NCBI GenBank assembly: GCA_035513155.1
Contig: DATKCO010000022.1
Span: 18,117 to 82,116, forward strand
DNA: 64,000 nt
DNA from: Gemmatimonadota bacterium
Lineage (GTDB): Bacteria; Gemmatimonadota; Gemmatimonadetes; JACCXV01; JAHWKZ01
Direction of reading: 5' to 3'
The position numbers were made by a program, and so were the translations under genes. Below the pieces are notes generated by a model. That model ran no database searches. It had not been told where the DNA came from and saw only the letters and a list, made by a program, of their open reading frames with translations. This document shows positions 17,659-61,103 of the stretch, piece after piece; position 1 is the first letter of the stretch, and the number at the start of each line of letters is the position of its first letter.

Positions 17659-18348
17659 CTACGAGTCGGCGTCGATCGTGTCCCGCACGGCGCGGCCACG
17701 GATCCGGACCGTGTCGGGAGTGACGGTCACGGTCCCGAGACTCTCGGGGACCGCGATCTCCAGCCGCTGGTCGAACTCCCCTTGCACGTCCTCCACCTGA
17801 GAGAGATCGAGGGCCAGGGAGCCGATTGGACGCACCTCGGCGGTCACGCCCCGCACCTGCACCCGCTGCGGGGTCACCTCCACGCTGTCGATCCGGAATC
17901 CGTCGACAGGCCGCGGCGCTCCCACGGTCTGGAGCGGCACCGTGCGCTCGATGAAGCGATCGGTCACGACCGTAACCTGGCTGGGGGTGATCGAGACCGG
18001 GGTCACGCCGAGACCGGCCGGCTTCCGCACGTCGGCCAGCTCCAGCGTCACGACGACGGAGTCGTTCTCCCCGCCCTGGACCCGCTCCTGAACGGCGAGG
18101 TCGTCCTTGTCGAGACGGAGGAGCTCCTTCCCTGTTCCGGAGAACGTGACCTCCACCTCGGACGGGAGCTGCTCGCGGTTGGTGATGATCATGTCCGCGC
18201 CCTCCACGGCGATCTGGAGAGGCACCGGATACTCGATGACCGCGGTTTCGTCGGACGTGACGTCGAACCAGAGCAGAAGGGCCAGCACCAGGGCGACGGC
18301 CTTGTAGCCGGGGTTCCGGGTGAAGAAGTCGCGGATCCGCGAGGCCAA
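17659..18348 (-). CDS. YbbR-like domain-containing protein
   Basis: N-terminal membrane anchor (YKAVALVLALLLWF) followed by repeated beta-rich YbbR-type modules (VTVVTDRFIERTVPL..., VEVTPQRVQVRG...). TTG start. Confidence 0.75.
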   Translation of the reverse strand: MASRIRDFFTRNPGYKAVALVLALLLWFDVTSDETAVIEYPVPLQIAVEGADMIITNREQLPSEVEVTFSGTGKELLRLDKDDLAVQERVQGGENDSVVVTLELADVRKPAGLGVTPVSITPSQVTVVTDRFIERTVPLQTVGAPRPVDGFRIDSVEVTPQRVQVRGVTAEVRPIGSLALDLSQVEDVQGEFDQRLEIAVPESLGTVTVTPDTVRIRGRAVRDTIDADS

Positions 18349-18351
18349 CGG

Positions 18352-18534
18352 CTACTGCCCGTCGCCCTCGGACCCGCCCCGCGTGTGCTTGACCGCGCTC
18401 ATGACCGCGACGCCGAAGAGAGCCAGGCATACGACGAAGATCCACTGGGCGCCGATCCCGATCATGTTCATCCCCATCGCGACCGCGCCGATCAGGACCA
18501 GGAAGCCGATGAAATACAGGTAGAACCAGTCCAC
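18352..18534 (-). CDS. Small (60 aa) two-helix membrane protein
   Basis: A GTG at 18534 is preceded by GGGAGGGG. It encodes VDWFYLYFIGFLVLIGAVAMGMNMIGIGAQWIFVVCLALFGVAVMSAVKHTRGGSEGDGQ. The stop lies 3 nt before the YbbR gene start. Confidence 0.45.
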   Translation of the reverse strand: MDWFYLYFIGFLVLIGAVAMGMNMIGIGAQWIFVVCLALFGVAVMSAVKHTRGGSEGDGQ

Positions 18535-18653
18535 GGAGCCCCTCCCTTCCCCACGTTGCAGTGACGACGCACCGGTGGGTCGGAATCTAGACCCCCGGCC
18601 CCCACCCGTCGACCGCGACGCCGCACCCCACCATTCCCTTGAGCCATGCCCTT

Positions 18654-18774
18654 GAGGTCGCTCAAAATGAGTCGATTTCAAGGCGCGCGACGCAGGGGCT
18701 CCGAGGCGTACGACTCGTACGCCGCAGGAGCGCCGAGGAGCGCAACGCCGAAATCGGCCATTTTCAGCGACCTC
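18654..18774 (+). repeat. Copy A of a ~120-nt imperfect-palindrome intergenic repeat
   Basis: Terminal arms GAGGTCGCTCAAAATG / CATTTTCAGCGACCTC. Conserved blocks AAGGCGCGCGACG (18680-18692) and GAGGAGCGCAACG (18735-18747). Apical hairpin GGCGTAC-GACTC-GTACGCC (18705-18723). The right end overlaps the ccdA stop codon (18774-18776). Confidence 0.8.
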
Positions 18775-19529
18775 TAGATGTTCTCGGCGATGAAGGGGAA
18801 CAGCGGCAACAACCACCGATTCAAATAGGCGGCCAGGACCGCGAAGTAGTTCGTGAAGATCAGGATCCCGACCGCCACGAGCATGAGACCACTGGCGATC
18901 TCGATCGGGCGCATCCAGGAACGGATGCGGCGGAAGGTCGTCAGGAAGGCGTTGAACCCGACCGCGGCGACGAAGAACGGCACGCCCAGTCCCAGTCCGT
19001 ACACGACCAGCAGCCCCACCCCCGCCCGGAGCTCTCCGCTCGTCCCGGCCATGGTCAGGATGGCGCCGAGGATCGGGCCGATGCAGGGGGTCCATCCGGC
19101 TCCGAAGGCGAACCCCACGACGACCGAGCCCAGCATGCCCGCCGGACGTTCCTGCAGGTGCACGCGACGCTCGCGCCGGAGGAAGCCGAGGTTGAGGAGT
19201 CCCGTGATGTGGAGCCCGAACAGCACGATCACGAGGCCCGCCACGCGACGGATCCAGATCTGGTTGGAGCGCATGAACTGGCCCAGGGCGGACGCCGACG
19301 CTCCCAGCGCGACGAACACCATCATGAACCCGAGGATGAACAGCAGCGAATGGATGACGGTCAGGCGGCGGACCCGGGCGCGCGCTCCGGGATCGGGGTC
19401 GGAGAGCTCGTCGAACGTGAGCCCGGTGATGAACGAGAGGTAGCTGGGGAAGAGCGGAAGGACGCAGGGGCTCAGGAACGAGACGACGCCGGCGGCGAAC
19501 GCCACCGCGAGCGACAGCTCACCGCCCAT
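18774..19529 (-). CDS. ccdA: Cytochrome c biogenesis / thiol-disulfide transporter CcdA (DsbD-core family)
   Basis: Polytopic protein with FLSPCVLPLFPSYL and GAGWTPCIGPILG motifs. ATG at 19529 (alternative 19559). Confidence 0.85.
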   Translation of the reverse strand: MGGELSLAVAFAAGVVSFLSPCVLPLFPSYLSFITGLTFDELSDPDPGARARVRRLTVIHSLLFILGFMMVFVALGASASALGQFMRSNQIWIRRVAGLVIVLFGLHITGLLNLGFLRRERRVHLQERPAGMLGSVVVGFAFGAGWTPCIGPILGAILTMAGTSGELRAGVGLLVVYGLGLGVPFFVAAVGFNAFLTTFRRIRSWMRPIEIASGLMLVAVGILIFTNYFAVLAAYLNRWLLPLFPFIAENI

Positions 19530-20157
19530 CTCCGTCCCGCCCGCGCACCTCCGTGACATCCTCCATGAGATCCGACGCCGCGGGGGCGAGGCCGAGCGCC
19601 ACCTTCACCGGGTGCTCGAACTCTTCCCGCGAGCGAGGGCCGATCCACTCCTTGACGACCTGGCCGTCCTTGATGAGGAGCGAGGTGGGAAGCCACGGCG
19701 AGAGCTCGTACGCCTCGAGCATCTGAGGCGTGCCGATGACCGAGGGATAGCTCATCGCGATCCCGACCGCGAACTCGCGCGAGTCCCGCGGCATGTCGTT
19801 CACCGTCACGCCGAGGACCATGAACCCCCTTGGACCGTAGGTCTCGTGAAGGGCCATCAGGTCGGGGATCTCGACCTTGCAGGGACCGCACCACGAGGCC
19901 CAGAAGTTCATCAGGATGACGGGGACCGAGTCGAGGGCGGCGAGCGTCAGGGTGTCGCCACCCAGGGTCTCGAGCTCGAACGATGGCGCCTCGCGGATCG
20001 CCTCGAGGGCCGCCCCCCCGGGCGCGCCGGCCGCTCCCCCGTCCGCCCGGGCGTCGTGCTCCCGTCCGCAGCCGGTCACGAGGCCCGCGACGAGGAGCGT
20101 TCCGAGAAGGAGGCGAACGATGGAAGCTGTCGTGAGCATGGACGGGAAATGTACCAT
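19519..20157 (-). CDS. TlpA/ResA-like thiol:disulfide oxidoreductase lipoprotein
   Basis: Lipobox LVAGLVTGC and a thioredoxin fold with FWASWCGPC. Alternative ATG at 20139. Confidence 0.85.
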   Translation of the reverse strand: MVHFPSMLTTASIVRLLLGTLLVAGLVTGCGREHDARADGGAAGAPGGAALEAIREAPSFELETLGGDTLTLAALDSVPVILMNFWASWCGPCKVEIPDLMALHETYGPRGFMVLGVTVNDMPRDSREFAVGIAMSYPSVIGTPQMLEAYELSPWLPTSLLIKDGQVVKEWIGPRSREEFEHPVKVALGLAPAASDLMEDVTEVRGRDGDGR

Positions 20158-20193
20158 TCCCGGGGGCGATGCGAAAACCGGGCCGGAGGCGGA

Positions 20194-20901
20194 CTACTCG
20201 ATGGCCCCCAGCGCCCAGGCCACGGCTTTCCGGACGTCGGGGTCCGCATCCCGTTCCAGGATCGGCAGGAGGTAGGGGATCGCCCGCTCGTCCTCGATCG
20301 CTCCCAGCGCCCAGGCCGCCGTCGCACGGACCTCGACGCGCGCGTCCCCGAGCGCCTCCGCCAGCTCCCCGATCGTCGCCGGGTCCTCGGCGTACCCCAG
20401 CCCCAGGGCACCGGCCGCGCGGACGCCCGGGTCGGGCGCGGCGAGCGCCGCGCGTAGCTCGGAGGTCGCGCGCGGATCCCGCATCCGGCCGAGCTTGAGA
20501 GCGGCCATCCGCCGGACGCAGGGATCCGACTCCCGGAGACCCGCAGCCAGGGGATCGATCGCCGCGGCGTCCCCGGCAGTGCGGCCCCGATCCTGGACCG
20601 CCCACTGGACGGTGGCGCGCTGGAGGGGATTCAGGGGCACCCCCACGCCGACCAGCTCGTCCCGCGTCGAGGACCAGCCGTGACGACCGTCGACGGCCCG
20701 GACGGCGAGCTCGCAGACGACGGGGTCGGCTCCCCGCACGGTGGCGAGCAGCGCCGCCGCGAGGGAGTCGGAGGGGACGGCGGGCTCCGCCGCCTGCGCC
20801 GCCGGGCCGGGCTCGCCCGCGCGGCACACGACCACGACCGCCGCGACCAGGAGCAGCGCCGAGGCGAGCGCGGGGATCCGGTCGGGCCCGAAGGACCTCA
20901 C
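20194..20901 (-). CDS. HEAT-repeat protein with N-terminal signal/anchor
   Basis: N-terminal hydrophobic segment (ALASALLLVAAVVVVC). PBS-lyase/HEAT-like repeats (VRATAAWALGAIEDERAIPYLL, VRKAVAWALGAIE). The ATG at 20901 forms an ATGA overlap with the upstream gene's stop. Confidence 0.7.
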   Translation of the reverse strand: MRSFGPDRIPALASALLLVAAVVVVCRAGEPGPAAQAAEPAVPSDSLAAALLATVRGADPVVCELAVRAVDGRHGWSSTRDELVGVGVPLNPLQRATVQWAVQDRGRTAGDAAAIDPLAAGLRESDPCVRRMAALKLGRMRDPRATSELRAALAAPDPGVRAAGALGLGYAEDPATIGELAEALGDARVEVRATAAWALGAIEDERAIPYLLPILERDADPDVRKAVAWALGAIE

Positions 20902-23171
20902 TGGTTCCCCAGCGCCTGAGCCGCCTGCTTCCGGACCTCCGGGTCCTCGTCCTTGAGGAGCTCGATCAGCATGTCGTACGCGATCGGGTCGTCCATCTCG
21001 GTCAGCGCCCAGATGGCGGTCTTCCTCACCTCCTTGTTGGCGTCCCGGAGCAGCGGCCGGAGGGCGGGAGCGGCGCTCGGGTCCTCGATCTCCCCGACCG
21101 CCCAGGCCGCTGTCTTCCGCACCTCGGCGTTCCCGTCCCGGAGCGCCGCGATCAGCGCCTGGGGCGCCCGCGCCGGCTGGATCTCGCCGATCGCCCAGGC
21201 CGCGGTCTTCCGTACCTCGGCGTTGTCATCGGCGAGCGCCTGGGCGAGCGCGGGAACGGCCTCGACGCTCTCGATCTCGCCGATCGCCCAGGCGGCGGTC
21301 TTCCGCACTTCGGCGTCGGAGTCCGACAGGGCGCCTGCGAGCGCGTCCACCGCGGCCTCGCTCTCGATCTCGCCCAGCGCCCAGACGGCCTTGCGGCGGA
21401 CGTCGACGTCCGCGTCCCGGACCGCCGGGATCAGCCACGGGACCGCCTCCTCGCTCTCGATCTCGCCCAGGGCCCAGATCGCCATGCGGCGGACCTCGAC
21501 GCTCGAGTCGCGGAGCGCGGCGCCCAGCGCGGGCACGGCCTCCTCGCTCTCGATCTCGCCCAGCGCCCACGCCGCCATCGAGCGAACGTCGGGCGAGGCG
21601 TCGTTCCGCACAGCCTGCGAGAGTGCCGGCACCGCCCGCGGGCTCTCGATCTCGCCCAGGGCCCACGCGGCCATCTTCCTCACGCCCGCGTCGGCGTCGT
21701 TCGCCAGGGCCCGGACCAGCGCGTCGACCGCCCGGGGATCGTCCAGGCCGCCCAGCGCATGGGCGGCCGTCTCCCGCACGTCGGCGTCCGGGTCCCCCAT
21801 GGCCGTCAGGAGCGCGGTCACCGTGCGCGGGTCGGCGCCCGCTTCCCGCTTCGGGTCCTTCCCCGGCTCGGCCTGGATCGGCCCCATGCCGTCGAGCGCC
21901 GTCTCCGAGTCGAAGTCGGCGGAGGTGTCGAACCCGGAGCTCGAGTCGACGCTCTCGCCGGACGGGGCGAGCCGCTCGGTCCACCCCTCCGCCGGGTCGA
22001 CCCGGATCGGCTCGTCCGCGCTTTCCGCACGCTCGGCGACGAGCTCCTCGGCCTCGAGCGACGGCCGAGCGGGCGCCATCGCGGCGAGCGGGAGGACGAC
22101 GAGCGCGAGCGCCGCCGCCACCGCCGCCTTCCGTCCCGGGGTCAGCGAGTGCCGCGCCACACCGGGCTCGAGGATCGCCAGGAGGCGGCCCTCGAAGCTC
22201 GATCTCTGGGCCATGGGCACCGCCGCGACCGGCGCGCGTCCCCGACCCGCCGCGCGGACGATGTCGAGCAGGTGCGTCGCGTACTCGGAGGCCCGGGTGC
22301 CCGCTCCGAGGACGAGGTCGTCGCAGGCCCGCTCGCTCTCGTGGCGCAGGCGGCGGGCTGCGATCCAGGCGAGGGGGTGGAACCAGTACAGCGAGCACGC
22401 AACCCACGCGACGAGGTGGGTGGCGAGGTCGCCCCGGCGGACGTGCGCGAGCTCGTGGAGGAGGACCGCCTCGCGGCGCTCCTCGTCCCACGCCTCCGAT
22501 TCCAGCGGCAGGACGACCGCCGGCCGGATCACCCCGCAGGTCACGGGCATCACCGCGGCGTCGCTCCGGACCACCCGCACGGCGGTCCGCAGGTCCAGTC
22601 GCTCCGTCACCCGCCCGAGGGGCAGGAGCCACGCCGGTCCCGAGAGCGGCTCGGCGCGACGCGCCAGTCGCCACATCCACGCCATCCCGACGAGGATCCG
22701 GCCGAGGACGAGCGCGCCGATGGCGAGCCAGGCGTAGAGCGCGAGCCGCCACGGGTCGTGCGGGAGACCGAAGCGGGAGCCGCCGTCACCGGACGCCGGC
22801 CCCCAGGGCTCCGGCGCGTCGATGGCGCCGGCGGAGAGCGAAGCGGGTCCGCCGGGCTCCTCGACGGCGGCGCTGACCGGAGCGCTCATCGGCCAGTTGG
22901 CCGACGAGCGCGACGGCTCGGCCACCGGGGTCGTCGCGGTCGTCGGCGCGGGAGTCTCGATCGCCGCCCCTCCCCATCCGGCGGGAAGGATGGACATCCT
23001 CCACGGCACCGCCAGGGTGACGAGCGGGATCGCGACGACGCCGGCCAGGGCCGCGCTCCACACGGCGTGCCGGGCGGCGGCCGAGGTCCCGCGCATCGCG
23101 GACGTGACCCCGAAGGCGGCCAGGAGGAGCAGGGTTCCCTTGACGAGCGATCCGACGAGGACGGATTCCAT
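20898..23171 (-). CDS. BlaR1/MecR1-like M56 peptidase with a C-terminal array of about 10 HEAT repeats
   Basis: N-terminal TM helices, HELAHVRRGD (HExxH) and ESERACDD, typical of M56 signal transducers. After a Pro/Ala/acidic linker the last ~310 aa are 31-aa repeats (consensus about VRKTAAWALGEIESEEAVPALAQAL.D.DAE). Confidence 0.85.
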   Translation of the reverse strand: MESVLVGSLVKGTLLLLAAFGVTSAMRGTSAAARHAVWSAALAGVVAIPLVTLAVPWRMSILPAGWGGAAIETPAPTTATTPVAEPSRSSANWPMSAPVSAAVEEPGGPASLSAGAIDAPEPWGPASGDGGSRFGLPHDPWRLALYAWLAIGALVLGRILVGMAWMWRLARRAEPLSGPAWLLPLGRVTERLDLRTAVRVVRSDAAVMPVTCGVIRPAVVLPLESEAWDEERREAVLLHELAHVRRGDLATHLVAWVACSLYWFHPLAWIAARRLRHESERACDDLVLGAGTRASEYATHLLDIVRAAGRGRAPVAAVPMAQRSSFEGRLLAILEPGVARHSLTPGRKAAVAAALALVVLPLAAMAPARPSLEAEELVAERAESADEPIRVDPAEGWTERLAPSGESVDSSSGFDTSADFDSETALDGMGPIQAEPGKDPKREAGADPRTVTALLTAMGDPDADVRETAAHALGGLDDPRAVDALVRALANDADAGVRKMAAWALGEIESPRAVPALSQAVRNDASPDVRSMAAWALGEIESEEAVPALGAALRDSSVEVRRMAIWALGEIESEEAVPWLIPAVRDADVDVRRKAVWALGEIESEAAVDALAGALSDSDAEVRKTAAWAIGEIESVEAVPALAQALADDNAEVRKTAAWAIGEIQPARAPQALIAALRDGNAEVRKTAAWAVGEIEDPSAAPALRPLLRDANKEVRKTAIWALTEMDDPIAYDMLIELLKDEDPEVRKQAAQALGNQ

Positions 23172-23173
23172 GG

Positions 23174-23563
23174 CTACCTGCCTTCCTTTCGGGCCTCTTC
23201 GATGCGCTCGGCGAGCCTCTCGAGCTCGGCCGGCGAAAGGCCGGTGTCGGACATGCGCAGGAGCGCGACCGCGGCCTGCTCGGCCGAACCGCCGAAGAAC
23301 GTGGTCACGATGTGCTGGAGCGCGTTCTTGCGGGCGCGCTCCGGCGCGACGGCCGGATAGTAGACGTACTTGCGGCCTTCTTCCTTGTGATGGAGCCGGC
23401 CCTTTTCCTCCAGGACCCGCATGGTGGCCCGGACCGCGGAGTAGCTCGGCGGGTCGGGCATCTCGTCCTGGACCTCCTGGACGGTGGCCTTGCCGCGCCG
23501 GTACACGACGTCCATGATCTGTCGCTCGCGCGGGCTCAAGCCGTGGGGGGCCTTTTCGCTCAT
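23174..23563 (-). CDS. BlaI/MecI/CopY family transcriptional repressor
   Basis: 129 aa. Winged-helix N-terminus LSPRERQIMDVVYRRGKATVQEVQDEM...YSAVRATMRVLEEKG and a C-terminal dimerisation helix. Confidence 0.9.
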   Translation of the reverse strand: MSEKAPHGLSPRERQIMDVVYRRGKATVQEVQDEMPDPPSYSAVRATMRVLEEKGRLHHKEEGRKYVYYPAVAPERARKNALQHIVTTFFGGSAEQAAVALLRMSDTGLSPAELERLAERIEEARKEGR

Positions 23564-23611
23564 GCGTCCTCCATCGGAATCTGGTCGTGAATCGGGGTCC
23601 GATCCGTGAAT

Positions 23612-23625
23612 GCTAGAATTCTAGC
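23612..23625. promoter_or_regulatory. Perfect 14-bp palindrome, candidate BlaI-type operator
   Basis: GCTAGAATTCTAGC lies about 50 nt upstream of the repressor gene and covers the predicted -10. Confidence 0.5.
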
Positions 23626-23647
23626 AGATTCCGTCGCTCGCTGTCAA
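23618..23647 (-). promoter_or_regulatory. Candidate promoter of the blaI-like operon
   Basis: Minus strand: TTGACA (23642-23647), 18 nt, TAGAAT (23618-23623). The -10 is embedded in the palindrome. Confidence 0.45.
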
Positions 23648-23656
23648 CCCCCGGCC

Positions 23657-23686
23657 TTGACCGGTCCGACGACCCGATGGTAGCGT
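23657..23686 (+). promoter_or_regulatory. Candidate promoter for the divergent lipoprotein gene
   Basis: TTGACC (23657-23662), 18 nt, TAGCGT (23681-23686), with TG immediately upstream (extended -10-like). Confidence 0.3.
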
Positions 23687-23717
23687 CGTTCCCTTCCGTG
23701 TCCCGAATCCAGGAGGA

Positions 23718-24089
23718 ATGTCCGTGCGCTCGATTCTCTGCCTGACCGCCGCCTGCTCGCTGCTCCTCGCGGGATGCGAACCCCCCGAGCCCGAGCAGGC
23801 GATGATGCCGCCCGCGCCTTCCGACACCGTCGCGCCCGTGCGGCAGCGGGCGACCGGGCCTGACGCGTTCGACGGGTGCTACTACCAGGGGCAGCGATAC
23901 AGTGTCGGCGGAGTCCGGGCCCAGGACGGGGTCCTGAAGAAGTGCGTCGACGAGGGGCGCTGGCAAAACGTGGACGGTTTCGGCAACCTGATCCCCGAGG
24001 ACCCCACGGTCGAGGACACGCTCTCGGTGTCGGACACCCTCGCGGTCCCGGACACGACCGACACGGCCTCCACGACCGGATTGCCCTAG
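23718..24089 (+). CDS. Small lipoprotein, hypothetical
   Basis: MSVRSILCLTAACSLLLAGC has a lipobox. AGGAGGA lies immediately upstream, and its spacing favours the in-frame GTG at 23724. I recognise no family. Confidence 0.6.
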   Translation: MSVRSILCLTAACSLLLAGCEPPEPEQAMMPPAPSDTVAPVRQRATGPDAFDGCYYQGQRYSVGGVRAQDGVLKKCVDEGRWQNVDGFGNLIPEDPTVEDTLSVSDTLAVPDTTDTASTTGLP

Positions 24090-25210
24090 CCGACAGGATC
24101 CTCCTTCGACTCCGCGAACAGCGGTCCCAGCGCGCTTCCCTCGGCCACCGCGCGCTCGAGGTCCAGCAGCCGCCGCTTCCGCCAGAGGCCCCCGCCATAG
24201 CCCGTCAGGTTCCCGTCGGCGCCGATCACCCGGTGACACGGGATCACGATCGCGATCCGGTTGTCCCCGTTCGCCCGCGCGACTGCTCGCACCGCCTCGG
24301 GACGCACCCCCAGCCGGCGGGTCTGCTCGCCGTAGCTGCGGGTCTTCCCGTAGGGGATCGCTTGGAGCCCCTCCCACACCGCGCGCTGGAACTCGCTTCC
24401 GGGGGTCTCGAGCGGAAGCGTGAACTCCCGCAGCTCGCCGGCGAAGTAGGCGTCGAGCTCCTCGCCGGTTCGACGGATCACGTCGTTGACGCCCGGAACC
24501 GCCACCCGCCCGGTCCCCGCCCTCACCCGCTCGATCTGGGTCTCCAGCATGCGGCGGTCGGCGAACTCGAGCAGGAAGAGCGCGGTCTCCGAGGCGCCGG
24601 CGATCATCGGGCCCAGCGGGGTCGTCAGCCGGTGGAGGACGATCGGCTCCGTGGCGGCGGCGCGGCCCGGTGTCGTCCCGGTCGTCCGCACGAACGCCTC
24701 GTGGAACCCGCTCAGCGACTCGTAGCCGCTCTCGTACGCCGCGCTCGCCGGCCCCGCGCCGTCCTTGAGGCGGCCGATCGCCCGCCCGAGCCGCCGGGCT
24801 CGATGATAGGCATGGAACGTCATCCCGTGGTGGCGCTTGAACCAGCGCCGGACGCGCTCGGGCTCGAGGCCCCGCTCCCGGAGGTCCGCGTCCCTCCAGC
24901 GGCGCGAGGGATCCGCCTCGACCGCGTCGAGGAGCCCGGCGATCCATTCCGGGGCCGCGCCGTTCGCCATCGGCCGGCAACGCTTACAGGGGCGGTAGCC
25001 TGCGGTCAGGGCGTCGCGAGCGCCGGGAAAGAACTCCACGTTCCCCCGGGCCGGCTTCCTGGCCGGGCACGTCGGACGGCAGAAGATCCCCGTCGTCGTG
25101 ACGCCGGTGACGAACACCCCGTCGTACTCCGGGTCGCGCCGCTCGAAGGCGTCCCACATCTCGGCGGGCGGGGGGAGGGTGGCGTGCTCCATGCCCTCAG
25201 CGTAGCGCAT
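24086..25210 (-). CDS. ada: Bifunctional Ada: methylphosphotriester-DNA methyltransferase / AraC-type regulator / O6-methylguanine-DNA methyltransferase
   Basis: N-Ada zinc motif GIFCRPTCPARKP...CKRC, an AraC HTH region, and C-terminal PCHRVIG (MGMT active site). ATG at 25210 (alternative 25192). Confidence 0.85.
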   Translation of the reverse strand: MRYAEGMEHATLPPPAEMWDAFERRDPEYDGVFVTGVTTTGIFCRPTCPARKPARGNVEFFPGARDALTAGYRPCKRCRPMANGAAPEWIAGLLDAVEADPSRRWRDADLRERGLEPERVRRWFKRHHGMTFHAYHRARRLGRAIGRLKDGAGPASAAYESGYESLSGFHEAFVRTTGTTPGRAAATEPIVLHRLTTPLGPMIAGASETALFLLEFADRRMLETQIERVRAGTGRVAVPGVNDVIRRTGEELDAYFAGELREFTLPLETPGSEFQRAVWEGLQAIPYGKTRSYGEQTRRLGVRPEAVRAVARANGDNRIAIVIPCHRVIGADGNLTGYGGGLWRKRRLLDLERAVAEGSALGPLFAESKEDPVG

Positions 25211-25269
25211 CGAGGATTGCGGTTCCACCGGAGAATCGACGCGGAATTCCGCCGGCCTCCCTTCGGTCG

Positions 25270-25914
25270 TCAGCGGCCACCGAGGCGGTACGTCACGCCG
25301 GCCGAGACGCCGGCCAGGTGGATCGCACGGCGATCGCCGGTCGGAACCGAACCGTCCCCGATGTCCGCGCCCAGGCGTTCCTCCTGGAACACGACCCAGT
25401 CGGTGAACGTCACACGGGCTCCCCAGGGCGAATCGGGTACGCCGCTCCAGGCGACCCCCAGGGCGAGCGGCACGAGCCAGTCGGTCTCGGTCTCGTCCAC
25501 GCCCCGCACGTCCAGGCGGCTCGTGATCCCGCCGATCCCTACGGCTCCCACGAAGTCGAGTGCGCCCCCCGACGCGACCCGACGCTCGACGCGCACGTGG
25601 TAGAGGTAGCTCGTCACCTCCGTGTCCAGCCACGCGACTTCGAGGCCGCAGCCCAGGCCCCACTGCGGCGTAAGCTCCGCGAGAGCGATTCCTCCCGCCA
25701 GCAGCCGGGTTTCATCCAGGGGGTGGAGACCCTCGAGCGACTGCCGTCCCAGGACGCCGGTCGCGTGGAGGTCGATCTCCCAGGGCGGCCTGGAGCGCTC
25801 CTGGGCGACGGCCGGGACGGCGACAGCCAACGCCAGGAGGGCGACCGCTACCGATCCGATTCTGCCGGATTTGACGGATCTGATCCTACGCGTGCACGCG
25901 AGACTCCACTTCAC
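25270..25914 (-). CDS. Putative outer-membrane beta-barrel protein
   Basis: A GTG at 25914 gives the signal peptide ...GSVAVALLALAVAVPAVAQE. Alternating beta-strand pattern with a C-terminal ...GVSAGVTYRLGGR. Weak family assignment. Confidence 0.5.
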   Translation of the reverse strand: MKWSLACTRRIRSVKSGRIGSVAVALLALAVAVPAVAQERSRPPWEIDLHATGVLGRQSLEGLHPLDETRLLAGGIALAELTPQWGLGCGLEVAWLDTEVTSYLYHVRVERRVASGGALDFVGAVGIGGITSRLDVRGVDETETDWLVPLALGVAWSGVPDSPWGARVTFTDWVVFQEERLGADIGDGSVPTGDRRAIHLAGVSAGVTYRLGGR

Positions 25915-25979
25915 GAATCTAATTGTCACGGTCGGAGACTGGAAGCCTGGGCGAGTCGGGGGATCGCGACGGGATTGAC

Positions 25980-26852
25980 CTACCAGTCGTGGAACTTGTA
26001 CCCGAGGCAGCGGTGGACGAGGCGGGCGATGACGAAGTCGGGGGCGTGGAGGCCCTCGATCGGGGCCAGCTCCACGACGTCCATCCCGACCACGTTCTTC
26101 TCCTGGAACACGTAGCCGAGGAACCGCATCGTCTCGTGCCAGAACCCGCCCCCGGGCTCGGGGGTGCCGGTGGCGGGGACGAGCGCGGGGTCGAGGAAAT
26201 CCACGTCGAACGTGATATACACGGTGTCGGTCAGCGTGTTGAGGACCGTGTCCATCCATTCCTCGCCGTGCGCGATCCGATGGGACCAGAAGACCGGCAG
26301 ATCCTCGTCCTGGGCGAACTCCGCCTCCTCGACCGAGACCGCGCGGATCCCGACCGGCACCGCCGGCACTCCGAGCTCGAACACCCGGCGCATCACGCTC
26401 GCGTGGGACCAGGGCGTCCCCTCATAGCTCTCGCGCAGGTCGGCGTGGGCGTCGAGCTGGAGCACGGAGAGGTCCTCGAAGGCAGCCCGGGCGGCCCGCA
26501 CGGGCGCCGTCGTCAGCGAGTGCTCGCCGCCGAGGAACAGGGGGAACTTGCTGTCCCCGTAAAGCCGCGCAGCCACTTCCTCCAGCTCGGCGAGAAACAC
26601 GACCGGGTCGGAATGCGAGACGTCGACGGCGGGCGTCGTGTGGATCCCGCCCTTCCGGTACGGCTCCTCCCGGAGCACCTCGTCGTAGAGCTCCACGTAG
26701 CCCGAGGCCTCGAGGATCGCCGCCGGCCCCTTCCCCGTTCCCGCCCCGTACGACACCGTCGCCTCCCACGGCACCGGCACCACCACCCCGCGCGCGTCCT
26801 CGTACCGCGCGTCGGTATCCGAGAGCCCCAGGAAGTTCTTCGCTTCGGGCAT
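25980..26852 (-). CDS. speB: Agmatinase (arginase/ureohydrolase family)
   Basis: GGEHS, QLDAHADL, TFDVDFLDP and the C-terminal VELAP-type motif arrangement of ureohydrolases. Confidence 0.9.
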   Translation of the reverse strand: MPEAKNFLGLSDTDARYEDARGVVVPVPWEATVSYGAGTGKGPAAILEASGYVELYDEVLREEPYRKGGIHTTPAVDVSHSDPVVFLAELEEVAARLYGDSKFPLFLGGEHSLTTAPVRAARAAFEDLSVLQLDAHADLRESYEGTPWSHASVMRRVFELGVPAVPVGIRAVSVEEAEFAQDEDLPVFWSHRIAHGEEWMDTVLNTLTDTVYITFDVDFLDPALVPATGTPEPGGGFWHETMRFLGYVFQEKNVVGMDVVELAPIEGLHAPDFVIARLVHRCLGYKFHDW

Positions 26853-26877
26853 GCTAGACGACTCCCTCCCAACCGTG

Positions 26878-26999
26878 GAGGTCGATCAAAACGGGTCAGA
26901 TGCAAGGCGCGCGACGAGGGAGAGCCGAGGCGTACGACTCGTACGCCGCAGGCTCGCACGAGGAGCGCAACGCCGCAGATGGCCCGTTTTCATCGACCT
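26878..26999 (+). repeat. Copy B of the ~120-nt imperfect-palindrome repeat
   Basis: Arms GAGGTCGATCAAAACGGG / CCCGTTTTCATCGACCT. Blocks AAGGCGCGCGACG (26904-26916) and GAGGAGCGCAACG (26960-26972). Hairpin GGCGTAC-GACTC-GTACGCC (26929-26947). The right end overlaps the pdaD stop (26998-27000). Confidence 0.8.
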
Positions 27000-27546
27000 A
27001 GTCGATCAAAACCGCAGCCGCCACCACCGTCGTCCACAACCCACCCTTGTCCCCCACCGCCGACTGCGTGACGTTCCGGGTCGTCACGATCTCGTTGGAG
27101 ATCTTCCACTGCTCCTTGCGGGCGTCCCACGCGGCCTCGGGGTCGAAGTCGACGCCCATCGCCGTCGCCAGCATCTGGGCCGCCAGGTCCTCGGCGTAGT
27201 CGCCCGCGATCTTGTCGGTCTGGCCGTAGCCATGGTGCTCGGAGAGGTACCCGTAATGGTCCGGATCGCGCGGGATCGCCACGCCGATCGACGACGCGAT
27301 CAGCCGGTGCGGCTCGTTGGTCGCCGTCTCGGCGACCACGGTGAACAGCACCTGGCCGGCCCGCAGCTTCTTCACGCCCTCCTTGCCCGACACCATTCGG
27401 CACTGCGGCGGGAAGATGCTCGAGACCCGGACGATGTTGTACTCGGCGATCTTCGCGTCCCGAAGCGCGAGCTCGAACGACGCCAGCTTCTCGCGGTGAC
27501 GACCCACTCCGTGCGTCAGGAACATCTCCTTGGCGACGAATGGCAC
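26998..27546 (-). CDS. pdaD: Pyruvoyl-dependent arginine decarboxylase
   Basis: 182 aa. LTHGVG...[24 protein letters not shown] (self-cleavage serine context), typical PdaD length and motifs. Confidence 0.9.
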
Positions 27547-27559
27547 CGGCCTCTCCTCC

Positions 27560-28588
27560 TCAGCTCTGGGGACTCTTCAGGCGGATCGACTCGTCGTCTC
27601 CGCCGGGCTCTCCGGGCGGGATCGCGCCGGGGACCTGCATGGACTCCAGCTCCTTCTGCATCAGGGACCGCTGCTCCTCCTCGTAGCGAGCGAACAGCGA
27701 GTCCAGCCGGGGATCGTTGGGCAGGGAGGGCTCCATCACGATCAGATCCCCCTCCACCCCGGCTACCTGCGCCGCCTCGTCGGGGCCGCCCGCGAACTCG
27801 AGCCGCGCCCGTCCCAGGAACCGGCCGAGGTCCCCGGCCGCCACGATCCACGTCCCCGGCGACGCCTCCTCCGGGGCGTTCAGGGTCTTGCCGCCGTGCC
27901 CCGAGACGATGAGGTCGATGCCCGGCACCATCTGCGCCAGCGCGCGGTCCCCCTTGTAGGAGAGATGGCTGAGCGCGACAACGAGGTCGACGTCCTGCCG
28001 CTCGAGCTCGGCCACGCCGCGCCGGGCGCTGGCGACGATGTCCTCCTCGACGACCACGCTGTCCCGCATGGCGGCGTTCAGCAGGATCGTGGGGTTGAAC
28101 AGCCCGATGAGGCCGATCCTCCGGCCGCCCTTCTCCACCACCAGCGTCTTGTTCCCGAGACCCTCGAGGCCGACGACGTCGTAGTTCGTGTGGACCCAGG
28201 CGATGGGATTGTCGGTCACGATCTCGCGCACGTAGGCGGGCCCCTGGTTGAGGTCCCACTCCCCGAGCGTGAACGCGTCGTACTCCATCAACCGCATGGC
28301 GTCGACCATCACGCGGCCCAGCGCCGCGCCGTAGGCGCTCTCGCCGCCCGTGAAGTCGCCCGCGTCGACGAGCAGGATCGGCACGTCCGACTCGCGCCGC
28401 AGCGAGTCCACCACCCAGGCACGCTTCGCGAGCCCGCCAGTCGAATCCGCGCGACAGCCGCAGTCGTCGAAGTACCCGTACCCGTCCGCCGTGTGGAGCA
28501 CCAGCAGCTCGTCCGCCGGCCCTCCGCCACACGCGAGCAGGGCGATGGTCAGGATCGGCGCCCCGACCCGTAGGGCGTTTCGAATCAT
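27560..28588 (-). CDS. Metallophosphoesterase/5'-nucleotidase-like lipoprotein with divergent catalytic motifs
   Basis: The ATG at 28588 is preceded by GAGGAGG. Lipobox [11 protein letters not shown]. Calcineurin-like layout ([24 protein letters not shown]), but GEWDL stands where GNHE/D is expected. Confidence 0.7.
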
Positions 28589-28655
28589 GCCCCTCCTCGG
28601 TTCATGTGGGTTCGAGCTTGAGGGGGCTCGAGCCCGACCCGGTCTTAAACGCACG

Positions 28656-28777
28656 AAGGTCGCTCAAAACGGCTCAGATTCAAGGCGCGCGACGACGGCC
28701 GAGCGAGGCGTACTGAAAGGTACGCCGCAGTGAGTGCCGAGGAGCGCAACGCCGAAGATGAGCCGTTTTCAGCGACC
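28656..28777 (+). repeat. Copy C of the ~120-nt imperfect-palindrome repeat
   Basis: Arms AGGTCGCTCAAAACGGCTCA / TGAGCCGTTTTCAGCGACC. Blocks at 28682-28694 and 28739-28751. Hairpin GGCGTAC-TGAAAG-GTACGCC (28707-28726). Ends 3 nt before the stop of the PorV-like gene (28780). Confidence 0.8.
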
Positions 28778-28779
28778 GC

Positions 28780-29787
28780 CTAAAACCGGAATCCGACCGC
28801 GAAGTGCGTCTCGTCACCCAGCTCCGACACCGAAACCTCCCGCGCGATGTCCGCCTCGAACCGGTCGTACCGGATCCCGATCCCGAACGAGCCGCCGGTC
28901 GCGCGGTCGGCCTCGCCCGAGTCCACATAGGGGTTGTCGATCATGACGATCCCGCCGCGCAGGACGAGCACCTCGTAGACCATGACCGTGGCGCCGCCGT
29001 GGAAGCTCGAGTTCGCGAGCTCGCGCAGGTCGCTCTCCGCGTCGAACGACAGGCCCACGTCGTATTCGGGCGGCAGGCCGAAGAAGCTCTCCGGCTTCGC
29101 TTCCACGCCCACCCGGACGCGGCTGGGCAGGTTGTCGCTGTCCCCGCCGCCGGAAGTGGCGTCGGTTTCGTCGTAGCTGAAGTCCCCGCCCAGGTTGCGC
29201 ATCGAGACGCCGAACGAGACCGGCACCGAGCCCGGGCGCGGGAGGTAGACGAGACCGATGTCGAACGCCGCGCCGCTGCCCGACGTCACGCCGAGATCGG
29301 AGTTGTACCATTTCGCCGTGACCCCGTACGACAGGCGGTCCCGCCAGTGGTTCGCCCAGGTGAGCCCCACCGCCCAGTCGCTGACCTCAGCCGTCCCCAC
29401 CACATCGGGCGACGTCTCGGTCAGCGGGATGTCCCCGTAGTCCTGGTAGATCAGCTGCGCGGCGAAGGTCCCGTAGGGAGAGACCACCGCGCCCGCCACG
29501 TAGTTGCCGTCGTATCCCGCGTCCTCCGCCCCCTCGATCCGGCTGAACGTGAGCGCGCCGCGCTCGAGGCCGTCGACGGTGGCCGGGTTGTACGGCATCG
29601 ACTGGAGCTCGCCTCGCGTCGCCACGACCGCGCGCCCCTGGCCGATGGCGCGCGCGCCGACCGGCAGCACCAGCCCGACGATCCCCCCGTCCGACGTGTT
29701 GCCGCTCGTCTGGGCGCGAGCGGAAGCTCCCGGCCAGGAGACCAGGGCGAGCAGGCAAAGCGCGGAGACGGCAAGGCGGCCGGGCAT
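28780..29787 (-). CDS. PorV/PorQ-like outer-membrane protein
   Basis: Signal peptide MPGRLAVSALCLLALVSWPGASARAQ. The LPVGARAIGQGRA...YNPA motif is typical of the PorV/PorQ (UPF0164-like) family. Beta-barrel ending in ...HFAVGFRF. An alternative ATG at 29832 would form an ATGA overlap with the upstream stop. Confidence 0.7.
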   Translation of the reverse strand: MPGRLAVSALCLLALVSWPGASARAQTSGNTSDGGIVGLVLPVGARAIGQGRAVVATRGELQSMPYNPATVDGLERGALTFSRIEGAEDAGYDGNYVAGAVVSPYGTFAAQLIYQDYGDIPLTETSPDVVGTAEVSDWAVGLTWANHWRDRLSYGVTAKWYNSDLGVTSGSGAAFDIGLVYLPRPGSVPVSFGVSMRNLGGDFSYDETDATSGGGDSDNLPSRVRVGVEAKPESFFGLPPEYDVGLSFDAESDLRELANSSFHGGATVMVYEVLVLRGGIVMIDNPYVDSGEADRATGGSFGIGIRYDRFEADIAREVSVSELGDETHFAVGFRF

Positions 29788-58930: not shown

Positions 58931-59063
58931 CCGTTGGCGGATCTCCTGGTCAGGAACGATGAGCGGGGTCGAGGCGCGCGACGAGGGAGGCCGGGGCGCA
59001 CTGAAAGGTGCGCCGCAGGCCCGCCCGAGGAGCGCAACGAAGAGATCGCCCGTTTTCAGCCGT
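58931..59063 (+). repeat. Copy D (degenerate left arm) of the ~120-nt repeat
   Basis: Blocks GAGGCGCGCGACG (58971-58983) and GAGGAGCGCAACG (59027-59039). Hairpin GGCGCAC-TGAAAG-GTGCGCC (58995-59014). The right arm CCCGTTTTCAGCCGT abuts the hppA stop (59064). The left arm is replaced, but GGCGGATCTC (58936-58945) can still pair with GAGATCGCC (59042-59050). Confidence 0.65.
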
Positions 59064-61103
59064 CTACGCCATAAACCAGGGGGCGAGGACGAGGGACACC
59101 ACGCTCATCAGCTTGATCAAAATGTTCATCGACGGTCCCGACGTATCCTTGAACGGATCCCCCACCGTATCCCCGACGACCGCCGCCTTGTGGGCGTCCG
59201 ATCCCTTGCCGCCCAGGAACCCGCTCTCGATGTACTTCTTCGCGTTGTCCCAGGCGCCACCGGCATTGGCCATGAACAGCGCCATCAGGACGCCCGTAAG
59301 CGTCGCTCCGGCGAGCATGCCACCCAGCGCCGCCACCCCCATCACCTTTCCGACGATGACGGGCGCGACGACGGCGATGACTCCCGGCACGATCATCTCC
59401 CGCAGGGCGGCGCGGGTCGAGATGTCCACGCAGCGCGCACTGTCGGGCTTCGCCTTCCCTTCCATGAGGCCGGGGATCTCGCGGAACTGACGTCGCACCT
59501 CTGCGACCATGCCCTCGGCGGCGCGACCCACCGCGGTCATCGTCAGAGCGGCGATCAGGAACGGCAGGAAGCCTCCGATGAAGAGCCCAATCACGACATT
59601 GGGGTCGATGATGTTGATCCCGGTCTCCCGCAGCCCGACCGCCGAGGCATAGGCCGAGAACAGGGCCAGAGCCGTCAGGGCCGCCGATCCGATGGCGAAT
59701 CCCTTGCCGATCGCGGCCGTGGTGTTGCCGAGCGCGTCGAGGCCGTCCGTGATGGCGCGCACCTCCTTGCCGAGCCCGCTCATCTCCGTGATCCCGCCCG
59801 CGTTGTCCGCGATCGGGCCATAGGCGTCGACCGACATCGTGACACCCACGGTGGCCAGCATCCCCACGGCCGCGATCCCGATACCGTACAGACCCGCGGC
59901 CTGGAACGAGACCCAGATCGCTCCGCAGATCAGCCCCACGGGGATCACCACCGACTCCATTCCCACAGCCAGCCCGGCGATGATGTTCGTCGCCGAACCG
60001 GTCTCGGAGGCGGCCGCGATGCGGCGGACCGGCTTGGACGACGTGTAGTACTCGGTCGCGAGCCCGATCAGGATCCCGACCAGCGTTCCCGACAGGAGCG
60101 CCCAGAAGGGCCCCGCGACCCCATAGTCGGGGTTGCCGGCGAACACGTCCGCCCGGGCGATCACGAAGTAGGCGGCCACCAGGAACAGGCCCGCGGCGAT
60201 GAACGTCGTGTTGCGCAGGGCCCCGGCCGGGTTCGTCCGTTCCAGCAGCTTCATCGCGCCGACGCCGATCAGCGACGCGATCAGCCCCACAACGATGAGC
60301 AGGATCGGCAGCGTGATGCCGGCCATGCGCTGCTCGGGGAGGATGAGCGGGCTGGTCGCCGCGATCGCGATCGTGGCGATGACCGCGCCCACGTACGACT
60401 CGAAGATGTCCGCGCCCATGCCGGCGACATCGCCGACGTTGTCCCCCACGTTGTCGGCGATCGTAGCCGGGTTCCGCGGGTCGTCCTCCGGGATCCCGGC
60501 CTCGACCTTGCCGACCAGGTCGGCACCCACGTCGGCGGCCTTGGTGTAGATCCCGCCGCCCACGCGGGCGAACAGGGCGATCGACGACGCGCCCATGGCG
60601 AACCCCGAGATGATCTCCGCGAACCCCCGGAACGCTTCCTCGGTGCCGGCCGCCCGGCCGACCCACAGGAACACGAGCCCGATCCCGAGCAGGCCGAGGG
60701 AGGCGACCGACAGGCCCATCACGCTTCCGCCGAAGAACGCGATCCGGAGCGCCGGGCCCTGGCCCTGGGAGCGGGCCGCCTCCGAGGTGCGGACGTTGGC
60801 CTCGGTGGCCGCGCTCATGCCGAAGAGGCCGGCCAGGATCGAGCACGCCGCGCCGGCGACGTAGGCTCCCGCTGTTCGCCACCCAACGGCCAGGCCGAGC
60901 AGGACGGCCACGACGGCGACGAAGGGCAGAAGCACGGAGTACTCCCGCTTGAGGAACGCCATGGCGCCGGAGCGGATCTGCTCGGCGAGGTCGCGCATGA
61001 CCTCGTTCCCCGAGGACTGCTTCTTCAGGTATACGTAAATGCCCCACGCCACGACGAGCCCCAGCAGGCCCCAGGCGGGAGCCGACGATGCGAACGTCTC
61101 CAC
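59064..61103 (-). CDS. hppA: Membrane-bound pyrophosphate-energised cation pump (K+-dependent subtype by motif)
   Basis: [26 protein letters not shown] and [17 protein letters not shown] (Ala form of the K+-dependence determinant). The GTG at 61103 is preceded by AGGAG. The 217 upstream codons of the track ORF overlap pth and are rejected. Confidence 0.9.

Follow-up and report, generated by a model that had tools for sequence, protein, structure and literature searches.

What kind of element comes to lie, time after time, directly behind the stop codons of unrelated genes? The question is raised by a 64,000-nucleotide stretch of DNA from a Gemmatimonadota bacterium (GenBank assembly GCA_035513155.1, contig DATKCO010000022.1, positions 18,117 to 82,116 of the forward strand; the whole stretch is hereafter referred to as the window), in which four imperfect palindromes of about 120 nt each adjoin the stop codon of a minus-strand gene. 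We find that these palindromes belong to a large family of intergenic repeats that form hairpins and have apparently not been described before, of the same kind as repetitive extragenic palindromes (REPs), bacterial interspersed mosaic elements (BIMEs) and miniature transposable elements with inverted repeats (MITEs). The family is new in its conserved centre and variable ends, its lack of a target-site duplication (TSD), its near-exact adjacency to stop codons, and a core that is common to different phyla and to MITEs.

Four copies adjoin stop codons in the window

A preliminary description, made from the letters of the window alone, had reported four copies of about 120 nt in one orientation, each against a minus-strand stop codon. 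We ran a covariance model (R1), built from 83 copies of the family, on the whole window without filters. It detected exactly these four copies, all in the same orientation; the next match scored 18 bits (E 0.065), and no degenerate extra copies were found in the window. Copy 1 (18654–18774; 111.7 bits over 18654–18773) lies directly 3′ of the ccdA stop codon, copy 2 (26878–26999; 131.7 bits) between pdaD and an arginase/agmatinase-family gene, copy 3 (28656–28778; 124.1 bits) after a PorV/PorQ-family gene, and the partly decayed copy 4 (58947–59065; 63.8 bits) after hppA, which encodes an H+-pyrophosphatase. The minus strand is the gene-sense strand of every copy, and the copies are spaced by 1.7–30 kb. 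All four copies lie where they had first been placed; the limits originally given for copy 4 were 58931–59063.

The stop codon of each upstream gene is a minus-strand TAG. That of the CcdA/DsbD_TM gene (18774–19559) occupies 18774–18776 and is 0 nt from the end of the model match at 18773; those of pdaD (26998–27000) and hppA (59064–59066) are overlapped by copies 2 and 4, respectively, by 2 nt (gap −2), and that of the PorV/PorQ-family gene (28780–28782) is separated from copy 3 by a gap of +1 nt. The gene names originally proposed (ccdA, pdaD, PorV-like and hppA) are supported by Pfam matches to DsbD_TM/CcdA, PvlArgDC (pdaD) and H+-PPase and, for the gene upstream of copy 3, by an NCBIfam match to the PorV/PorQ family. 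The genes downstream of copies 1–4 are YbbR-like, arginase/agmatinase-family, metallophosphoesterase and ychF, respectively.

The four copies align over about 120 nt with 73% mean column identity. Whichever strand is taken, a single long hairpin results for copies 1–3 (−65 to −77 kcal/mol, z-scores −6 to −10.5). The fold of copy 4 has a z-score of only −1.3; its stop-proximal arm, core and apical stem are intact, and its distal arm is decayed and carries an insertion. The layout is well seen in copy 2, where the plus-strand core motifs AAGGCGCGCGACG (26904–26916) and CGAGGAGCGCAACGCC (26959–26974) provide the two opposite strands of the core helix and internal loop, and enclose the apical stem-loop GAGGCGTAC-loop-GTACGCCGCAG (26927–26952, plus strand), the stem of which covaries throughout the family. 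The exact motif GAGGAGCGCAACG occurs in the window at the four copies only; when up to two mismatches were allowed, 15 matches were found versus 5.7 expected by chance.

The family is large and extends beyond Gemmatimonadota

We scanned public genomes, one per species, for both core motifs at their fixed spacing, and obtained at least 110 matching stretches (the retrieved loci are denoted by L numbers below). Among the matches listed, most came from 13 metagenome-assembled genomes (MAGs) of Gemmatimonadota, often with many loci per MAG. Using nhmmer, we counted about 118 copies in the retrieved loci and the window, in agreement with the proposal that four copies in the window imply a high-copy genomic family; the density of 4 copies per 64 kb would correspond to a few hundred copies per genome. 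Four pattern matches (L002, L063, L075 and L102) were rejected by R1 as chance occurrences.

Homologues recognized by R1 span six further lineages, namely Rokubacteria, Binatia and the Alpha-, Beta-, Delta- and Gammaproteobacteria. The scores were 63–114 bits in Rokubacteria, 68–74 bits in Deltaproteobacteria, 64–66 bits in Binatia, 62 and 45 bits in an alphaproteobacterial MAG, 45–52 bits in Betaproteobacteria, 41 bits in Microbulbifer and 40 bits in Burkholderia. These copies outside Gemmatimonadota retain the core, and their outer and apical helices are quite different; the deltaproteobacterial ones have a G+C content down to 49–54%.

A described family with which the element could be equated was not found. 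No Rfam 15 family matched anywhere in the window at the gathering threshold, nor any copy in 18400–29000 at E ≤ 10; copy 2 had no match at E ≤ 0.01 (blastn, word size 11) in 5,426 complete genomes of Escherichia coli, a species that bears ERIC, REP and BIME sequences; plasmids and viral contigs contained no copy of the element; and literature searches with both core motifs and a betaproteobacterial terminal inverted repeat (TIR; see below) returned irrelevant matches only. The initial view of a repeat of REP, ERIC or MITE kind belonging to no named family thus stands: further copies exist, their orientation and position relative to genes are non-random (see below), and no match to a described family emerged. 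To our knowledge, Gemmatimonadota and Rokubacteria, which are abundant and poorly studied soil phyla, have no described repeat families. The family also has practical consequences, as it breaks assemblies (betaproteobacterial copies lie at contig ends) and can shift annotated stop codons; the covariance model is ready for use in annotation.

The hairpin is maintained by compensatory change

Read on the gene-sense strand, the element starts 0–3 nt after the stop codon with NGGNCGN-UGA-AAAYGG, CAUCUG, GGCGUUGCGC-UCCUCG and a variable stem; the apical module CUGCGGCGUAC-loop-GUACGCCUCGG follows, then the partner of the variable stem, CUCGUCG-CGCGCCUUG, CAUCUG and CCRUUUU-GA-NCGNCC. The segment NGGNCGN-UGA-AAAYGG contributes to two helices, P1 and P2, which are separated by an invariant G.G mismatch inside UGA/UGA. 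The conserved core, ..GCGUUGCGC-UCCUCG..(variable stem and apical stem-loop)..CUCGUCG-CGCGCCUUG.., lies between helices that vary in sequence and keep their pairing. Conservation among the Gemmatimonadota copies is highest in the middle of the element and not at its ends. The conserved loops form three tandem U.C/C.U mismatches on the gene-sense strand.

RNAalifold predicted 37 pairs for the family. Standard pairs occupy 97.0% of the cells, as compared with 85.4% in column shuffles, none of 500 of which reached as high a value; in controls with slid partners, only 31–49% of the cells were paired. Double-sided, compensatory changes were found in 26 of the 37 pairs, with up to four Watson-Crick types per position, and those in the core helix are also seen in copies that violate the search pattern (L032, L078 and L094). 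These results strongly support the conclusion that the hairpin is maintained by compensatory change. Hammerhead and K-turn readings were rejected, either because the positions they depend on show the covariation of a stem or because the loop has a symmetric form.

Position and orientation follow the upstream gene

To relate the copies to genes, we inferred the coding strand and frame of the flanks from codon-position G+C, which yielded 87 callable copies. In 73 of them it is always the same end that is turned towards the end of a gene (sense orientation), with the stop codon usually 0–3 nt away. The stop codon lies at −3 to +5 nt in 56 copies; in nine it lies at −10, where a TGA internal to the element is the stop used, and in only six at 7–17 nt. 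The opposite side is typically 16–75 nt from the next gene (median 36–42), and of the two gaps the stop-side one was the smaller in 22 of 23 cases with co-directional genes and in 6 of 6 with convergent genes. The non-random placement noticed in the window therefore holds for the family. Several convergent gene pairs (L101, L079, L029, L094, L077 and L091) have two tail-to-tail copies, one for each gene, which shows that orientation follows the direction of the gene and not that of replication.

TAG is over-represented among the stop codons beside Gemmatimonadota copies (59% versus a background of 31%; Fisher p = 3e-5). About 70% of the copies are followed by a co-directional gene without room for a promoter, and no U-tract terminators were called in 18300–29200 of the window. 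Thus, the element is apparently read through and not an efficient terminator. We also considered the internal TGA as a selected in-frame back-up stop, and discarded the idea because in-frame gaps amount to about one third, as by chance.

Copies are gained, lost and constrained at orthologous sites

A metagenome scan with the pdaD protein identified nine close relatives (85–97% identity), which allowed us to follow individual sites. The pdaD-agmatinase junction contains a full element in the window, L111 and L117, as well as in L021, L023 and L001 from the genome scan. L116 has a core-deleted mini-hairpin there, and L112 a footprint in which TGA is followed by no more than the final 8 nt of the element. 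The junction is empty in L113, L114/L115, L118 and L119, with the stop codon, the Shine-Dalgarno sequence and the start codon all within about 10–25 nt. The native pdaD stop has the same position in filled and empty sites; the window stop overlaps copy 2 as the result of a secondary deletion of 18 nt, seen by comparison with L111, the closest relative. The PorV-family site, at which five or six related genomes have an orthologue of copy 3, is full in five relatives, half-deleted in L118, reduced to a remnant in L114 and without the element in an 85% outgroup. The occurrence of full, truncated, footprint and empty states at orthologous sites shows that copies have been gained and lost between related species.

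When species are compared at the orthologous PorV-family site, identity amounts to 86% over the element (91% over its outer arms), 84% over the adjacent coding sequence and 34% over the spacer downstream. A conservation of retained copies that equals that of coding DNA suggests purifying selection or homogenisation. The outer arms are locus-specific, and the inner module switches among a few types found genome-wide. Family-wide, the identities of outer and inner modules are nearly uncorrelated (r = 0.11), and 12 of 28 pairs with arms at least 95% identical have interiors less than 70% identical; the family is therefore mosaic.

Some further variants were recorded. At the PorV-family site of L112 (about 721–1060), an extra small palindromic insertion, GGGTACCCAAGGAACTTGGGTGTT, in the distal arm makes the copy 139 nt long. 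The mini-hairpins of about 60 nt in L116 (pdaD site) and at L016:4043–4103 have both outer arms and no core or apical module; they apparently arose by deletion between GCG/GCGC repeats. Partial duplications (9–14 nt) of the start of the stop-proximal arm were seen at L111:2541–2570 and also in L001, L003, L052 and L108. They come after the stop codon and before the full element, as in TGA-GGTCGATGAC-TA-GGTCGATGAAAAC, with slippage, replacement or imprecise conversion as candidate origins. Finally, L017 and L032, from the same MAG (DASSPT), are identical from 40 nt before the end of the upstream gene to two thirds of the way through the element and then diverge completely, which suggests either a rearrangement breakpoint inside the element or recently duplicated genes.

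The Gemmatimonadota unit ends with the hairpin

The most similar intragenomic pair, L046 and L093, is identical exactly over the hairpin, with unrelated flanks. The flank profiles of 68 Gemmatimonadota copies showed only the stop-codon signal, with no TSD, target motif or TIR beyond the hairpin arms. An A at the downstream position expected for the second copy of a TSD was present in only 4% of the copies, although the element itself is 80–90% conserved. From the boundaries of the L046/L093 pair and these profiles, we conclude that Gemmatimonadota copies have neither a TSD nor a TIR beyond the arms.

A 12-nt repeat around copy 2, GTCGATCAAAAC, was considered as a TSD and rejected, since the pdaD C-terminal codons GTTTTGATCGAT are also present at the empty site L113; the secondary 18-nt deletion in the window copy weakens this candidate further. 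The pdaD C-terminal codons GTTTTGATCGA(C/T), found at window 27001–27012 and in L113 and L023, are rare codons for the genome. They match the distal arm of the commonest element subfamily and, being present at the empty site L113, do not represent a TSD.

No transposase was recognized between inverted copies: the bracketed genes are mreB (L009), ftsA (L018) and ordinary genes (L069 and L020), and no RAYT gene was seen among them. In tblastn searches, IS630 and IS200 queries, the latter an IS200-type TnpA sequence, had no match in about 1.4 Mb of loci, and no IS630-like coding sequence was found in the window or the retrieved loci.

Proposed roles: a co-transcribed element or a folded DNA site

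With about an even chance of being right, we interpret the family as a non-autonomous hairpin repeat that serves as a co-transcribed, stop-proximal 3′ element acting on mRNA, a role in RNA that we infer, like the mechanism of mobilisation, from sequence patterns. The element would spread, or have spread, as mobile DNA; modules would be exchanged between copies by recombination or gene conversion; and copies would persist mainly where they are co-transcribed as the first ~120 nt of a 3′ untranslated region or intercistronic spacer. There, the stable hairpin might act on the 3′ end of the upstream cistron by protecting it, defining it or affecting its processing. Because the base of the hairpin (P1 and P2) falls inside the footprint of the terminating ribosome and must be melted, the element could also influence termination or coupling in the manner of those E. 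coli REPs that lie no more than 15 nt from a stop codon. According to the summary of Liang et al. (2015) in PMC12306157, REPs located less than 16 nt from a stop codon cause terminating ribosomes to stall and reduce translation. Efficient termination of transcription by the element would not be part of this scheme, because downstream genes start only about 16–75 nt further on. The copies concerned lie within the terminating-ribosome footprint in core-gene operons (such as pdaD-agmatinase, the dcw cluster, ccdA and hppA), so that an effect on mRNA stability, processing or termination, if true, would amount to a genome-wide layer of post-transcriptional control.

Several observations weigh against this interpretation. 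No mobilising enzyme or autonomous parent insertion sequence (IS) was found beside any copy, and the tight stop adjacency remains unaccounted for when there is neither a target motif nor a TSD. In 14 of the 87 callable copies the orientation is reversed, with the same end 2–24 nt upstream of the start of an opposite-strand gene; one such copy adjoins the ftsA start in two species. As most copies were retrieved by the core motifs, the invariance of the core in our sample is partly there by construction; the conservation outside the search pattern and the covariation are unaffected by this mode of retrieval. The hairpin is also asymmetric between its strands. In 74 of 90 copies the plus strand gives the more stable fold (mean difference 5.8 kcal/mol), and it is on this strand that the conserved loops read as three tandem G.A/A.G motifs, a hint that the plus strand may be the one recognized.

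Such asymmetry is one argument for the principal rival explanation, which we consider unlikely and in which the hairpin is a folded single-stranded DNA (ssDNA) site for a putative strand-specific transposase or recombinase (HUH/RAYT-like or tyrosine-recombinase-like). The plus strand would be the active form, marked by the three tandem G.A motifs and a C.C mismatch, and the gene-sense orientation would result from selection against the other orientation in mRNAs. A unit that coincides with the hairpin and lacks a TSD resembles REP/REPIN and IS200/IS605-type ssDNA elements. Asymmetric mismatches are kept where Watson-Crick pairs would be stabler, the central pair between the two core G.A motifs covaries from C-G to G-C (in L095, L079 and L069), and the core has been kept exactly in different phyla, between which the helices have diverged. 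Yet no gene for the enzyme demanded by this explanation was found beside any copy, and the bracketed genes and tblastn searches described above are equally negative. The tail-to-tail pairs show that orientation tracks gene direction rather than the replication strand, and in the flanking genes it is the plus strand that serves as template, the strand least often single-stranded. Moreover, the G.U pairs of the core, which the gene-sense strand gains there, would favour that strand; the counts of G.U and C.A intermediates (19 and 36) give no clear preference.

A more speculative proposal, which we regard as quite doubtful, is that the conserved core is a portable recognition module for a putative conserved factor. 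The module would comprise two tandem G.A/A.G motifs (U.C/C.U on the other strand) around a covarying C-G pair, beside a GCGC helix. The factor might be a new enzyme that mobilises hairpins without TSDs and whose targeting is linked to the ends of genes or to the termination of translation, or else an RNA-binding or processing protein of wide occurrence that uses the module as a stop-proximal control device. Recognition of this kind would explain the exact retention of the core in Gemmatimonadota, Rokubacteria, Binatia and four proteobacterial classes, as well as its uptake, in both orientations, as cargo of the MITEs described next. If the family proved to be purely selfish, it would be an unusually clean TSD-less hairpin element with near-exact stop adjacency, for which a mechanism is needed.

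Proteobacterial MITEs carry the same core

In a betaproteobacterial MAG and its relatives, the core is embedded in a 301-nt unit, copies of which are 95–99% identical and often lie at contig ends (L009:1390–1690; equivalents in L033, L039, L068, L089 and L067). The unit has imperfect TIRs of about 30 bp (GGGCCTGTTGACATTCA...), and its junctions read cTA on one side and TAg on the other, that is, a TA duplication within CTAG. Of its two internal hairpins, B has the standard core; in hairpin A the core module is found on the other strand and its loop strands have changed places. In three of seven copies, and always at the same end of the unit, a long open reading frame (ORF) has the TAG as its in-frame stop codon. 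This 301-nt unit is a textbook MITE.

Homologous MITEs of about 260–270 nt were found in three records, on an Azotobacter plasmid, a Citrobacter plasmid and a Burkholderia chromid. The Citrobacter MITE starts at the TAG stop codon of rfbD and has CTAG on both sides. The Burkholderia MITE, with 31-nt perfect TIRs, also starts at a TAG stop codon and lacks TA at its right end; the Azotobacter one has the TA/CTAG junction at its right end only. On the Azotobacter chroococcum plasmid (NZ_CP066311.1; L191:1474–2931) the MITE is followed directly by an IS630-family IS, which has different TIRs and is inserted in the CTAG that the MITE regenerated. The transposase frame of this IS contains internal stop codons, consistent with a frameshifted or decayed gene.

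IS630 elements insert at TA within CTAG, and some groups of the IS5 family do likewise. Outside stop codons, high-G+C genomes have few CTAG and TA sites, so that such targeting would be a simple reason for the stop adjacency and the TAG enrichment of these MITEs. The link to CTAG/TA-targeting MITEs thereby offers a concrete explanation of how bacterial repeats accumulate at stop codons in high-G+C genomes. The Gemmatimonadota hairpins have neither the TIR nor the TSD, and are therefore related modules rather than demonstrable members of the MITE class.

From the same findings one could suppose that the Gemmatimonadota copies were left behind, as inert relics, by MITEs that target TA/CTAG (of the IS630 or IS5/IS427 type). 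Those MITEs would have inserted into the TA of TAG or TAA stop codons, which would be among the few TA or CTAG sites at 71% G+C, and then lost their TIRs and TSDs, leaving a functionless hairpin. We consider this quite improbable. It agrees with the cTA and TAg junctions of the true betaproteobacterial MITEs and their position on in-frame TAG stops, with the starts of the Citrobacter and Burkholderia MITEs at TAG stops, with the excess of TAG beside Gemmatimonadota copies and with the visible series of decay. However, the TSD position downstream has retained A in only 4% of copies while the element is 80–90% conserved, no TIR-like sequence is present in any Gemmatimonadota locus, and the youngest pair has sharp boundaries that enclose the hairpin alone. 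Orthologous copies are conserved like coding DNA next to a saturated spacer, and a palindromic target by itself cannot yield an orientation bias of 84:16.

The remaining explanations fare worse. A portable transcription terminator, of an unusual intrinsic or a factor-dependent type, for a high-G+C phylum would suit a very stable hairpin placed directly 3′ of stop codons in sense orientation, with arms resembling an A-tract and U-tract (GAAAAC...GUUUUG) and a separate copy for each gene of a convergent pair. Its U-rich segment, however, is base-paired as part of the stem, and covariation turns it into CACCUUG, CAUCCUG or the like, no terminator-like sites were called in 18300–29200, and about 70% of copies precede a co-directional gene some 16–75 nt further on (for example, pdaD and the agmatinase-family gene), which makes termination a highly improbable function. 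A family of independently transcribed small RNA genes, or a cis-antisense RNA from the plus strand, would be in keeping with the better plus-strand fold and with the purine-rich G.A-type loops typical of structured RNAs, but can be dismissed almost outright, given the lack of a conserved promoter or flanking sequence on either side, the lack of an Rfam match, and the hundreds of copies that accompany the stop codons of unrelated genes and differ in presence from one species to another through gain and loss.

Comparison with known repeats

Among known repeats, the REPs and BIMEs of E. coli, of which REPs stabilise upstream mRNA, are similar in being high-copy extragenic palindromes of transcribed 3′ or intercistronic regions, with mosaic modules, no TSD and proximity to stop codons. 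They differ in host phyla, and no sequence similarity to the family was detected in the 5,426 E. coli genomes. A REP is a palindrome of 20–40 nt with a GTAG head, whereas the unit described here is about 120 nt long and has a conserved central core and variable, covarying outer helices. Its stop adjacency is also tighter, most copies lying within 5 nt as against 11–50% of E. coli REPs within 15 nt, and its orientation bias is strong.

The REPINs that accompany RAYT genes in Pseudomonas and Enterobacteria are, like the present family, long hairpins of about 100 nt that lack a TSD, persist vertically, form sequence populations within genomes and keep their pairing by compensatory change (PMC3116915 and PMC3337134). 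In the present family the halves are not themselves palindromic, there is no GTAG/CTAC head in the 83-copy alignment, and the core is common to phyla, unlike the lineage-specific REPIN sequences. The features of REPs and REPINs that it does possess are the extragenic location, the lack of a TSD and the maintenance of the hairpin.

MITEs of the IS630/Tc1-mariner type (RUP, Correia/NEMIS, Nezha and ERIC-like) are likewise rod-like hairpins of 100–300 nt in transcribed intergenic DNA. The proteobacterial relatives are exactly of this type, with long TIRs and frequent location on TAG stop codons, whereas for the Gemmatimonadota copies no TA duplication, no TIR beyond the arms and no parent IS were found.

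The attC sites of integrons share with the family a length of 60–140 nt, an imperfect palindrome at or next to the preceding stop codon, a fixed orientation and mismatches that distinguish the strands. Here, by contrast, the AAC/GTT triplets at the R-box positions are not conserved and covary to GGC/GCC, GAT/ATC and others; there is neither a cassette array nor an integrase, and the flanks are syntenic housekeeping genes. We rejected the attC reading because the positions at the base of the stem covary freely and lack R″/R′ (RYYYAAC / GTTRRRY) core sites.

Mycobacterial TRITs are conserved, repeated palindromic terminator motifs located immediately 3′ of stop codons in another high-G+C lineage. 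The present family is mostly operon-internal, with the next gene at 16–75 nt, so that efficient termination is unlikely, and its element is much longer and has conserved internal loops.

Other features of the window

Two features of the window lie apart from the repeats. At 20165–21816, within the minus-strand ORFs 20194–20901 and 20898–23171, about ten tandem units with a period of 93/96 nt (31–32 codons, 60–74% identity) suggest a repeat protein encoded on the minus strand, possibly HEAT- or armadillo-like. Just upstream of the ORF at 23174–23563, the minus strand (23647–23618) carries a near-consensus sigma-70-type promoter (TTGACA, 18 nt, TAGAAT, with an extended TG), which matches at 11 of 12 positions and is unusual at 71% G+C.

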